From Candidatus Woesearchaeota archaeon (lineage in GTDB: Archaea; Nanobdellota; Nanobdellia; Woesearchaeales; JACPBV01): a DNA stretch of 32,000 nucleotides. The notes beneath the pieces were generated by a model. That model was not told where the DNA came from, ran no database searches, and saw only the letters and a list, made by a program, of their open reading frames with translations. The stretch is from assembly GCA_016188175.1 (NCBI GenBank), contig JACPII010000002.1, forward strand, positions 55,379-87,378, given 5' to 3'. How positions within the stretch are numbered: position 1 is the first letter of the stretch; each line of letters begins with the position of its first letter. The position numbers and the translations under genes were made by a program. Positions 26,086 through 30,272 of this stretch are shown one piece after another.

Positions 26086-26808
26086 ATGCAATTAAGCAAA
26101 CTTGAATCACAAGCCGACGAAGCGCTGAAGAAAAACAATCTTGCTATTTTCACGGCTAAAGACCTGATGCTGCTGCTTGGAATTAAACGGATGAAAGCAT
26201 ACAACCTCGCAAAAGCGCTCAAGCGGAAAGGCGCTGTCAATGCTGTAAAAGGCGGCATGTTTGCGTTGGCAGGCACCAATGAGCTTTCTTTTGGCCAGCA
26301 TCTTAACTGGCCTTCTTACCTGAGCTTTTGGTCTGCGTTGAGCTATTACGGATATTCAGACCAGATGCCTAGGACGCTCTTTTACGCATCAGTCAAATAC
26401 ATGAAAAAAAGAGCGAACTGCCAATTCGTTGCATTGTCCAATAAAAGATTCTTTGGCTACACCAGCATAGGGAGCATCACAATCGCAGAGAAAGAGAAAG
26501 CCTTCGTCGATTCATTGTTGTTTCCCAAATATGCCGGCGGCATGAATGAGATAAGCAGATGCCTGAAAAATGCATTGAAGGATATTGACATAAAAAAGAT
26601 GGCCAGCTATGCTGAAAAGGTGGGGAACAAAGCGGTGTTGCGCAGGCTTGGGTTTTTATTGGAAATTACCGGCATTGATAGCAGCCTCCTATCTGGATTA
26701 AAAAAGGGCATAGGCAGCGGATACGAGCGCATTGATCCCTCGCTTCCAAAAAGGAATCATTTTAATAAGGAATGGCTCCTGGACGTCAACGATGATATCG
26801 CTCACTGA
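26086..26808 (+). CDS. AbiEi-family antitoxin / wHTH transcriptional regulator
   Basis: The N-terminus (FTAKDLMLLLGIKRMKAYNLAKALKRKGAVNAVKGGMFAL) looks like a winged helix. The size and the 17-nt overlap with a downstream DUF1814 NTase gene are typical of AbiE modules. Confidence 0.7.
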   Translation: MQLSKLESQADEALKKNNLAIFTAKDLMLLLGIKRMKAYNLAKALKRKGAVNAVKGGMFALAGTNELSFGQHLNWPSYLSFWSALSYYGYSDQMPRTLFYASVKYMKKRANCQFVALSNKRFFGYTSIGSITIAEKEKAFVDSLLFPKYAGGMNEISRCLKNALKDIDIKKMASYAEKVGNKAVLRRLGFLLEITGIDSSLLSGLKKGIGSGYERIDPSLPKRNHFNKEWLLDVNDDIAH

Positions 26809-27538
26809 GCTTAGCGAGTTAAAGAACAGGCGGAAAACCAATCTTTATTACGAAGAGAAGGAATATCTCCAGTATATTTTCCTTCATGCATTATCAGGAT
26901 TTCCGAATAGGTTTGTATTTAAGGGAGGGACCTGCCTGAGGATATGCTATGGGCTTGAGCGGGCATCAGAAGACCTGGATTTCAGCACCACTGCCTCTTT
27001 GGCTGAAGTCAGAAAAATTGTTTCCCTATGCCTGAAGGATTTTGAACTGCTTAACATTAAACACGGGGTTTCCGGAGAAAAAGAGCATCAGGGAAATCTT
27101 CGGATAGAAGTGCGTTTTGAAGGCCCTTTATTTTCAGGAACTCAGGCATCAACAAACACCTTAAAGGTTGATTTTAATAAAACCCATGTTAAACAAAAAG
27201 TTGCAAAAGTTGTTCCCCAGATTTTCTCAGATATTCCAGCATTTACTATCTTTGCCATCGATGAAACGGAGATACTTGCAGAAAAGATAAGGGCTCTGGC
27301 GAACAGGAGCGAATCAAGAGACTTGTATGATGTGTGGATGCTGTTGAGCAAAGGTGTCATAATTGACAGAAAATTGCTGGATGCAAAGCTTAAGGAAGAG
27401 CATAGCAGCCTCAAAAATCTCAAGGTGCCCATCAAACAGGCATACGAGAGAGACCTGAAAGGCCTGCTGCTTTTCCTTCCGCCTTATGTACAAGTCAAGG
27501 AAGAAGTGCTTAATGGGATTTTGAAAGGTATAAATTAA
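26792..27538 (+). CDS. AbiEii/AbiGii-family nucleotidyltransferase toxin (DUF1814)
   Basis: FKGGTCLRICYGLERASEDLDF matches the family signature. The Met at 26792 is preferred to the track start at 26732. Confidence 0.75.
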   Translation: MISLTELSELKNRRKTNLYYEEKEYLQYIFLHALSGFPNRFVFKGGTCLRICYGLERASEDLDFSTTASLAEVRKIVSLCLKDFELLNIKHGVSGEKEHQGNLRIEVRFEGPLFSGTQASTNTLKVDFNKTHVKQKVAKVVPQIFSDIPAFTIFAIDETEILAEKIRALANRSESRDLYDVWMLLSKGVIIDRKLLDAKLKEEHSSLKNLKVPIKQAYERDLKGLLLFLPPYVQVKEEVLNGILKGIN

Positions 27539-28467: not shown

Positions 28468-29571
28468 CTAGCCGCTCTGGACTTGATAGCGGAGTATTCC
28501 CGCAATCTTTCCAATATCCCTCAATTGGACACCCTCCCTTGTTTCGGTTGAGATAAGCACAACGTTCGTCCCCATCTTTCCCGCCTCCTGCTCAAAAAGG
28601 TCAATCTTCTCCTCGGAAAGCTCATCGGAAAGCAGCAATGTGTCGACGGCACCCTGCTGGAGCCTGGAGAGGACCTCAGCCTCGCCATAACTCGCCATCT
28701 GGGGGTTCTTTGCAAGCAGATCAAGAAATTTTGTCACTATCTTCTTTTCTGCCATTATTTCCTCATTCGCAAGAAGGTCATCCGACCGGTCGACCAATTC
28801 CTGCAGCCCGAATTCCCCCGTATAGCCCAGATCCTTGATGCCGATGATCTTCTTCCTAAGCTCGTTCGTGATAAAGCCCCCATCGACAAACTCATATTTT
28901 GTCGGACCCGGCCCCCCAACGATGATGCCTTTCAGGTCTGCATTCCCAAGAAACTGGGATTTGACATACTCGGCAACTTTTTTGAAATGCTCTTTTGCGG
29001 CACCCTCGATCAGGCGATGGAAACGTTGGGAAGATTGTCCTCCGGCCTTGAATTTCCCCGGGACTTCAGAATGTGTCTTTACCAAGGGCACGATAGTTTT
29101 CCCTTTCAGGAGCGCGATCTGCGCATCCCTCCGGTCCAAAACCACAAGCCCATACACCTCACGCTCATCGAGCATCTCCTTCAACAGGTCTAAAACAAAC
29201 TCTTTATCGCAGCGGTAGATCCTCGTCTTTAACGGGATAGGAGGCTCAATGCTCCACACCCGGTAATCCTGCTTTCCCTGCTGTGCAGCAACATTCCCCG
29301 AGAACGCAGCAAGCCCATGTTCCGGCGTTCCATTGAACAGCCGCAGATGCTGTATCATCCTTTCTAAAGCATCGATGACATTTTTCCGTGTCGCAGAATC
29401 CTTGATATTGGTCGCAGTCCCGGCTTCCTGCTGCAGGTGCTGGATGATCTTGACAATTTCATACCCTTGAGGGATATAGACCGTGACCAGCTCGGTATGC
29501 CTCCCTTGATATTGGTCCAGCTCCTTGATAAATTTCTTCAGCTTGTGCTTCTGCTGCTCGGTAAGGCTCAT
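28468..29571 (-). CDS. prf1: Peptide chain release factor aRF1
   Basis: TATNIKD (NIKS-type motif), GGQSSQRF (GGQ) and the YxCxxxF-region equivalent (IYRCDKEF). TTTATATAA lies about 25 nt upstream of the ATG. Confidence 0.9.
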   Translation of the reverse strand: MSLTEQQKHKLKKFIKELDQYQGRHTELVTVYIPQGYEIVKIIQHLQQEAGTATNIKDSATRKNVIDALERMIQHLRLFNGTPEHGLAAFSGNVAAQQGKQDYRVWSIEPPIPLKTRIYRCDKEFVLDLLKEMLDEREVYGLVVLDRRDAQIALLKGKTIVPLVKTHSEVPGKFKAGGQSSQRFHRLIEGAAKEHFKKVAEYVKSQFLGNADLKGIIVGGPGPTKYEFVDGGFITNELRKKIIGIKDLGYTGEFGLQELVDRSDDLLANEEIMAEKKIVTKFLDLLAKNPQMASYGEAEVLSRLQQGAVDTLLLSDELSEEKIDLFEQEAGKMGTNVVLISTETREGVQLRDIGKIAGILRYQVQSG

Positions 29572-29834
29572 AAGGGAAAAGGTCTGACGGGCATTATATA
29601 AAGGTTATGAGGCTAGTGCTCTGGCAAATTGATTATTCAACATTTCTATTGTCGACAATTATGTATGAAAACTAATATGTCAGGAAACAAGGTGATGAAG
29701 CAGAGGTATCCCCTGGATCTGCATTTCCCAAGAACCCCCATCCATGGGAAGCCCATAATTTCCGCCTTGCGATAGATTTAAAAAGTGGCAATAAACCCAC
29801 TGTCTTGCATAAAAAGGATGTGATAATTCCCTGT

Positions 29835-29939
29835 GGGGCTATGGGGTAGCTTGGACTCATCCTTTCTGGTTTGGGACCAGAAGACCCCGGTTCAAAAGCC
29901 TTTACCGGAAGGTGGGGGCGGAATATCCGGGTAGCCCCA
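29835..29939 (+). tRNA. tRNA-Pro (anticodon UGG) with a 29-nt intron in the T-loop
   Basis: Acceptor GGGGCTA/TAGCCCC plus discriminator A; U8; G10-U25 D-stem with A14, G18, G19, A21. Anticodon stem TCTGG/CCAGA with loop TT-TGG-GA (U33, G37). T-stem CCCGG (29886-29890)/CCGGG (29927-29931). The loop TTCAA... is interrupted by about 29 nt (about 29897-29925). No encoded CCA. Confidence 0.7.
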
Positions 29940-29978
29940 CTTCAGATGATTGCAGCGCATCGATAAGCATATTCAACC

Positions 29979-30272
29979 ATGGTACAAACAATAAAAGCGA
30001 TGAAGCGTTTTGGGTCCCGGTATGGGCGAAAGCTCAAAGAGCGCTTTGGCGAGATCGAGCGTGAGCAGCGAAAAAAGCAGCTTTGCCCCTTCTGCAGGGC
30101 GCCTCAGGTCAAGAGGGTCGCTTTAGGGATATGGAACTGCAGGAAATGCAATGTAAAGTTTACCGGCAAAGCCTATTCCGTTGAAAAAAGGATTTCTTTC
30201 AAAAAACAGCCCGAGGAAAGCAGGCAGGAGCTGCAGGAAGAAGAACAGGCCCAAGAGGCAGCGGCGTTATAG
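29979..30272 (+). CDS. rpl37ae: Ribosomal protein eL43 (L37Ae)
   Basis: GSRYGRKLK...CPFC...WNCRKCNVKFTGKAY zinc ribbon, with an acidic C-terminal tail. Confidence 0.9.
   Translation: MVQTIKAMKRFGSRYGRKLKERFGEIEREQRKKQLCPFCRAPQVKRVALGIWNCRKCNVKFTGKAYSVEKRISFKKQPEESRQELQEEEQAQEAAAL

Follow-up and report, generated by a model that had tools for sequence, protein, structure and literature searches.

A tRNA-Pro(UGG) gene with a T-loop intron between positions 59 and 60 in a Woesearchaeota archaeon

We find that positions 29835-29939 on the plus strand of a 32,000-nt stretch of Woesearchaeota DNA are, judged from the sequence, a genuine tRNA-Pro(UGG) gene whose T-loop is interrupted by an intron. 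The stretch that was analysed as a whole, here called the window, is G000:C68:55379-87378, where G000 denotes the genome (an assembly of 1.64 Mb in 119 contigs, 75% complete, 47% G+C) and C68 one of its contigs. We consider it very probable that the best explanation is the following: this is the sole tRNA-Pro(UGG) found, it contains a bulge-helix-bulge (BHB) intron between tRNA positions 59 and 60, the intron would be excised by the splicing endonuclease EndA, and the exons would be joined by RtcB. The intron is of a kind already known, and its mechanism is not new; the example is.

Results

Structure of the interrupted gene

The gene is 105 nt long, and 36 bases can be read between the two strands of the T-stem where seven are expected. 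The acceptor stem is formed by 29835-41 and 29932-38, with the discriminator A73 at 29939; U8 and A14 occupy their usual places, with G18-G19 at 29853-54. The D-stem consists of G10.U25, G11-C24, and G12-C23, in the same register that Rfam gives for the ortholog in L023. The anticodon stem (29865-69/29877-81) closes a 7-nt loop (29870-76) that holds U33, the anticodon UGG (29872-74), and G37. The variable loop is 4 nt long, and the T-stem pairs 29886-90 with 29927-31. G53-C61 and U54-U55-C56 are present, and the identity columns are invariant in our alignment of orthologs (A1). CCA is not encoded in the 3′ exon, and neither a C/D-box-like motif nor an ORF is apparent by eye in the intron. An earlier note on this DNA had described a tRNA-Pro(UGG) with about 29 extra nucleotides in the T-loop; its stems, its UGG anticodon, and the TTCAA that it placed from 29891 are confirmed. 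The coordinates of all features are collected in Table 1.

The gene is invisible to common tRNA finders, as the earlier note had warned. ARAGORN reports no tRNA gene in the window, and Rfam reports nothing there at the gathering score; the unspliced gene has no match to RF00005, even at E ≤ 10, and a permissive Rfam search of 29700-30100 returns only a DUF3085 RNA and a uup RNA at a chance-level E of 3.6, with tRNA absent. Once about 27-31 nt of the T-loop are removed, ARAGORN calls tRNA-Pro(tgg).

By using nine intron-less orthologs only, in cloverleaf structure (alignment A2), we built a covariance model, R1. It matches the window at 29841-29932 with a score of 56.7 bits (E = 7.9e-12), the runner-up match in the window scoring 8.6 bits. 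The model aligns 29841-29896 of the 5′ exon to its positions 7-61 and, following UUCAAA, opens one local insertion of 30 nt that comprises the intron and U60. Covariance scoring had been suggested as an analysis that might reject the locus as tRNA-Pro; R1, which was applied to the unspliced sequence, does not reject it and reaches its score across the insertion. The intron-less orthologs themselves score 55-58 bits with RF00005, and the predicted 76-nt spliced product is 88-96% identical to them. Over the whole 105 nt, the gene is 77-87% identical in seven related genomes; this conservation and the R1 score show that the resemblance to a tRNA is not accidental.

BLAST found no second tRNA-Pro(UGG) in the 75%-complete assembly; the sole other match was the tRNA-Pro(CGG) on contig C57.

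Table 1. Features of the tRNA-Pro(UGG) gene and its surroundings (plain numbers are window positions) and tRNA genes of the genome with 59/60 introns (contig:positions)
Feature	Location	Strand	Basis or detail
5′ exon, tRNA positions 1-59 (acceptor 5′ strand to T-loop U54-A59)	29835..29896	+	ARAGORN call after intron removal; R1; A1
29-nt intron, between tRNA positions 59 and 60	29897..29925	+	Gaps in A1; R1; metagenome contigs
3′ exon: U60, T-stem 29927-29931, acceptor 29932-29938, A73	29926..29939	+	Sequence; A1; R1
Central helix H, 5′ strand, U54 U55 C56 A57	29891..29894	+	Pairs with 29920-29923
Central helix H, 3′ strand, intron side, GGAA	29920..29923	+	Comparative pairing
5′ bulge A58 A59 / A; predicted cut after 29896	29895..29897	+	BHB geometry; AA^N in 27/27 introns
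3′ bulge U A / U60; predicted cut after 29925	29924..29926	+	NN^T in 27/27 introns
Inner helix h′, 9-bp hairpin 29898-29906/29911-29919, GGAA loop 29907-29910	29898..29919	+	Minimum free energy fold
BRE/TATA-like element CGATAGATTTAAAAAG, about 50 nt upstream of mature 5′ end	29770..29785	+	Read from sequence
62-aa ORF overlapping tRNA 5′ end; not a gene	29672..29860	-	ORF list
eRF1-family gene	28468-29571	-	
Ribosomal protein L37Ae gene	29979-30272		
tRNA-Val(CAC)	C15:4716-4811		59/60 intron 23 nt; no other intron
tRNA-Gln(UUG)	C40:3030-3163	-	59/60 intron 19 nt; plus anticodon-loop intron
tRNA-Pro(CGG)	C57:4869-5009	-	59/60 intron 42 nt; plus a second intron
tRNA-Val(UAC)	C67:4812-4926		59/60 intron 42 nt; no other intron
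tRNA-Asp(GUC)	C68:17102-17289		59/60 intron 91 nt; plus a second intron
tRNA-Pro(UGG), window gene	29835-29939	+	59/60 intron 29 nt; no other intron
tRNA-Ser(GGA)	C71:1767-1889	-	59/60 intron 39 nt; no other intron
tRNA-Glu(CUC)	C71:576-702	-	59/60 intron 26 nt; plus anticodon-loop intron
tRNA-Ser(CGA)	C71:240-356	-	59/60 intron 21 nt; plus anticodon-loop intron
tRNA-Gln(CUG)	C109:7098-7240		59/60 intron 24 nt; plus anticodon-loop intron

Proposed splicing of the precursor

In an archaeal BHB, each 3-nt bulge is cut by the endonuclease between its second and third nucleotides. In the canonical 37/38 intron, the stem of the arm is the outer helix of the motif and the first four bases of the loop contribute to its central helix. 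We propose that the tRNA-Pro(UGG) precursor would copy this layout in the T-arm. The gene would be transcribed as the 105-nt body plus a leader; in the precursor, the intact T-stem would form the outer helix, U54-A57 of the T-loop would pair with the four intron bases that immediately precede the 3′ bulge, and a 9-bp intron hairpin would close the other side of the motif. A single EndA, probably a homotetramer, would cut after 29896 and after 29925, and RtcB would join the exons. The product would be a 76-nt tRNA with the 7-nt T-loop UUCAAAU, to which CCA would then be added. With these two cuts, 29 nt are taken out and the T-loop becomes that of the intron-less orthologs.

The elements of this motif can be traced in the window copy. 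Its outer helix (h) is the intact 5-bp T-stem, which is 100% paired in 19 sequences, and both 3-nt bulges and the spacing of the BHB are present. The central helix (H) has three pairs and an A57.G29920 mismatch beside the 5′ bulge, where close relatives have U; all four pairs are found in 25 of 27 related introns. The mismatch makes the BHB of the window copy slightly relaxed. The inner hairpin (h′) is flush with the bulge, and its first four pairs show compensatory changes among orthologs. Nearest-neighbour folding leaves the 7×7 internal loop of the BHB open, as is usual with BHB motifs; the enzyme stabilises them.

Intron presence and covariation among orthologs

A BLAST search with the 105 nt against 60 related genomes gave 30 orthologous tRNA-Pro(UGG) loci, all from the same order. 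In 18 of these there is an intron at exactly the 59/60 site, of 15-123 nt and varied in sequence. The remaining 12 are intron-less and read TTCAAAT or TTCGAAT (TTCRAAT), as in the predicted spliced product; in the MAFFT alignment A1, the intron-less rows are gapped between TTCRAA and T-CCGGG.

We tallied 27 introns, from the 18 Pro(UGG) genes (the window's included) and nine other tRNA genes of the genome (see below). Position 57 and its partner in the intron form A-U in 18 cases and G-C in seven and are mismatched in two, the second mismatch being a G.G in tRNA-Val(CAC) of the same genome. The bulges are regular throughout (Table 1), the 3′ bulge reading AG^T in 18 of the introns. In A1, pairing of the 59/60 structure amounts to 97.8%, a value that none of 500 shuffles reached, and sliding the partners by one column reduces the pairing to 57.7%. 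Two of the 27 introns (L006 and L010) and one of the EndA sequences considered below (L052) belong to G013 and G004, two unpublished genomes that are absent from A1, A2, and R1; all conclusions hold without these genomes.

These data bear on the possibility, in our view a very unlikely one, that the tRNA gene is dead or disrupted and always keeps its insert. The imperfect central helix of the window copy would fit such a gene, as would the incompleteness of the genome, in which another copy could exist; however, all stems are intact and the exons are 88-96% identical to orthologs of working type, the same site is occupied in 18 of the 30 relatives with the BHB kept by compensatory change, a promoter-like motif conserved in the family lies upstream, and the gene is the only UGG isoacceptor found.

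Other interruptions are also seen among the orthologs. In six relatives (loci L006, L007, L010, L014, L017, and L029 of genomes G013, G008, G004, G001, G006, and G039, respectively), an intron of 22-31 nt at position 3/4 parts G1-G3 of tRNA-Pro(UGG) from G4. Its BHB is good: the outer helix (TAG/CUA) is drawn from the 5′ leader, as are three bases of the central helix. Position 3/4 is described as an extreme case, known from Thermoproteales (review PMC4090602). The tRNA-Pro(UGG) of L025 (G011) is interrupted in the D-loop but not in the T-loop, and those of L027 (G037) and L030 (G036) have an anticodon-loop intron besides the 59/60 intron. Comparison of these sequences indicates that introns turn over fast at several sites of tRNA-Pro(UGG) among the relatives.

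Register of the motif and position of the junctions

Our analyses support an intron predicted at 29897-29925 in this uncultivated DPANN archaeon, between tRNA positions 59 and 60, which sharpens the earlier suggestion of a T-loop intron at about position 58-60. The BHB drawn at that time was one register off. It comprised a 4-bp helix of 29890-93 and 29921-24 and bulges at 29894-96 and 29925-27, so that the cuts would fall after 29895 and after 29926. In the window sequence this helix has four pairs (one of them G.U), against three and an A.G mismatch for the 59/60 register. However, it breaks the universal G53-C61 pair, and its computed energy is worse (-19.2 vs. -21.1 kcal/mol). Cutting at the usual bulge sites would remove 31 nt rather than 29 and leave a 5-nt T-loop, which is found in none of the orthologs. 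The G53-U pair that distinguishes this register is possible in only two of 10 aligned introns, whereas the pair specific to the 59/60 register is formed in nine of the 10, with compensatory changes (AU in five, GC in four, other in one). Furthermore, the GCC/GGC inner helix and the CCTT/AAGG hairpin drawn beside it use 29899-29900 twice; the predicted fold is a single 9-bp hairpin. We find it scarcely credible that the shifted register is the true one.

We give as little credence to an intron at 58/59 (29896-29924). A29896 and A29925 are interchangeable in the window gene, so that a 58/59 cut yields the same mature sequence, and the mature sequence alone therefore cannot fix the junction; yet no BHB can be drawn for this site, and in orthologs such as L003 or L018 the same cut would give a T-loop that departs from the intron-less TTCRAAT. 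A junction at 60/61 was rejected, since it would give UUCAAAA, unlike every ortholog.

Introns at 59/60 in other tRNA genes of the genome

We scanned the genome for interrupted T-arms and submitted each match, after splicing, to ARAGORN. At least 10 tRNA genes have 59/60 introns (Table 1), and these genes are missed by ARAGORN -i and Rfam alike. The nine outside the window share the TTCR...YGAA-NN/T layout of the window gene, and some of them contain a second intron. When the ~21 genes credibly reported by ARAGORN or Rfam are added, a 59/60 intron is present in about one in three recognisable tRNA genes, and 59/60 is the most frequent non-canonical intron site found in the genome. Since ARAGORN and Rfam miss tRNA-Pro(UGG) and nine more genes, tRNA counts for Woesearchaeota from standard tools are too low. 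Mutual similarity among the ten introns is not obvious by eye, and hence recent transposition of introns within the genome is not apparent.

Some matches of the T-loop scan proved to be intact tRNAs with a duplicated 3′ end downstream, and these were set aside as false. Several tRNA genes without a T-loop intron have one or two copies of their own 3′ end 25-150 nt downstream (C49:6382-6504, C67:5477-5690, C80:13314-13616, C80:13831-13988, and C9:3820-4054). Two of the spacers between tRNA and duplicated end (on C67 and C80) share a hairpin element. The duplicated ends resemble what integration, or a small mobile element, would leave behind at tRNA 3′ ends.

Splicing enzymes

Genes for a splicing endonuclease and a ligase are both present in the genome. 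The single EndA gene (G000:C29:316-930) encodes 204 aa with both Pfam domains. Among solved structures, the product is closest to the N. equitans alpha subunit (8.7e-36), followed by the M. jannaschii alpha4 enzyme (4.9e-35). Residues 37-204 align gap-free to M. jannaschii EndA (1A79), with matching residues at the positions of the catalytic Tyr, His, and Lys. Relative to 1A79, the A. pernix enzyme has a 9-residue insertion, that of ARMAN-2 has insertions of 3 and 5 residues, and that of N. equitans has 2 + 4 residues. In the same alignment, the CSL/L1, ASL/L2, and NEQ loop/L3 insertions are absent from the EndA of this genome (positions of the CSL, ASL, and NEQ loop in EndAs from PMC3488258).

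PF01974 gives one match in the genome, and neither a gene for a second (beta) EndA subunit nor a three-unit fusion was found in this search. Among 31 related genomes, 28 have one strong PF01974 match each, including a complete single-contig genome; one of these also has a weak second match (E = 0.03), and three of the 31 have none. The EndA frames in the related genomes are 180-280 aa long. On the question of endonuclease type, which the earlier note had raised, there is thus one M. jannaschii-like EndA, and we infer from its sequence that it is probably an alpha4-like homotetramer. The RtcB gene (C42:11372-11836) is interrupted by a contig end.

EndAs of the same family have in common the active-site stretch and an N-terminal tail rich in Lys and Glu. 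The tail of the enzyme studied here comprises residues 1-35 (G000:C29:316-420) and precedes the region aligned to M. jannaschii; it is seen also in L047, L049, L051, and L052, and in the family it is ~20-35 residues long, and longer in one relative.

The loops that this EndA lacks have been reported to permit cutting of relaxed motifs (PMC5829648, PMC3488258). As the EndA resembles the narrow-specificity alpha4 enzyme of M. jannaschii and the BHB is relaxed, efficient cleavage of the tRNA-Pro(UGG) precursor is not guaranteed.

Metagenome contigs

The DNA of the window occurs in groundwater metagenomes, and no RNA run was found to contain it. In three groundwater runs of a single study, likely to be the source, contigs are identical to the window over 29870-30100. 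Contigs from further members of the community match it along the exon but part from it right after 29896/29897, and some go straight on with TCCGGG, the intron-less form. In runs X1, X3, and X4, contig depth over the 5′ exon (29840-29897) is 10-200× that of the flanks, and many contigs diverge exactly at the exon-intron junction of tRNA-Pro(UGG). Relatives that carry a different intron at this site, or none, are therefore numerous in the community.

Putative promoter and neighbouring genes

The BRE/TATA-like element listed in Table 1 has near-identical counterparts 35-60 nt upstream of tRNA-Pro(UGG) in relatives of the same family, and we regard it as a putative promoter. The 62-aa minus-strand ORF, which the earlier note had rightly dismissed as spurious, has no Pfam family that we could find and overlaps the conserved tRNA. 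For the eRF1-family gene, the nearest public loci are in Candidatus Woesearchaeota MAGs (61-77% amino-acid identity). Other neighbours of tRNA-Pro(UGG) are the L37Ae gene and genes for a prefoldin subunit and a UPF0147 protein. A gene for an AbiEii-type nucleotidyltransferase toxin, as in type IV toxin-antitoxin systems, sits 2.3 kb upstream (26732-27538, plus strand; PF08843, E = 1.5e-31).

Discussion

The tRNA-Pro(UGG) described here is the only tRNA found in the genome that is able to read CCA codons. It is a well-supported comparative example of a 59/60 intron, with presence and absence among orthologs and a covarying exon-intron pair, in a DPANN lineage whose endonuclease looks to be of narrow specificity. 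What is mildly unusual is the occurrence of many introns at non-canonical positions, some of them relaxed, alongside a loop-less alpha4-like endonuclease. The link between endonuclease architecture and intron type becomes testable in such a lineage.

A broader reading, which we consider rather doubtful, is that the Woesearchaeales combine a heavily interrupted tRNA set with one loop-less alpha4 endonuclease (no CSL, ASL, or NEQ loop) that cuts relaxed introns. The intron sites would then be, in this genome, 59/60 (in about a third of the tRNA genes), 30/31, and the D-arm, and in relatives also 3/4. If a loop-less EndA does cut relaxed substrates, loop insertions would not be required for broad specificity and another feature of the enzyme would have to do the job; the conserved Lys/Glu-rich N-terminal tail of ~35 residues would be a candidate.

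Comparison with known systems

The 59/60 site is listed among published non-canonical intron positions (review PMC4090602). The passages of that review that cite Marck and Grosjean 2003 and Sugahara et al. 2008 place 59/60 BHB introns in Crenarchaeota, Thermoproteales, and Nanoarchaeota. The intron described here is like these in its position, in predicted cuts within two 3-nt bulges round a helix spaced for 4 bp (three pairs and the A.G mismatch in the window copy), and in hiding the gene from ordinary finders. Its host differs in having a single alpha4-like EndA, rather than an (alpha-beta)2 enzyme with the Crenarchaea-specific loop.

Kaneta et al. 2018 included a Woesearchaeota genome in their analysis and reported, for DPANN archaea, alpha4-type EndAs together with numerous disrupted tRNA genes and predicted tRNA sets that are incomplete (PMC5829648). 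The present genome is similar: it has one EndA gene, many of its tRNA genes are disrupted, and standard prediction recovers only part of the tRNA set. In that study, alpha4-type EndAs of DPANN lineages with an "L3" loop were linked to many disrupted tRNA genes (PMC5829648); in contrast, the EndA found here is without the basic insertion of 6 residues that N. equitans EndA carries and that we take as L3.

A further DPANN case is the pre-tRNA-Cys of ARMAN-2 (Micrarchaeota), the T-loop intron of which is cut in vitro by an epsilon2 EndA (PMC3488258, PMC3239211). That precursor resembles ours in its T-loop intron and its somewhat relaxed BHB, although splicing is predicted in our case. The enzymes are different: The ARMAN-2 EndA is a three-unit epsilon2 protein that needs its ASL loop for this substrate, whereas the EndA found here is a single-unit protein of 204 aa without an ASL.

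The canonical 37/38 intron has the same topology as the intron of tRNA-Pro(UGG). In both, the 5-bp stem of the arm is outermost, the first four loop bases belong to the central helix, loop bases 5 and 6 with the first intron base make up the 5′ bulge, and the last loop base is the third base of the 3′ bulge. The difference is that this intron lies in the T-arm and not in the anticodon arm, and the precursor would therefore be able to form the T-loop/D-loop elbow only once it has been spliced.
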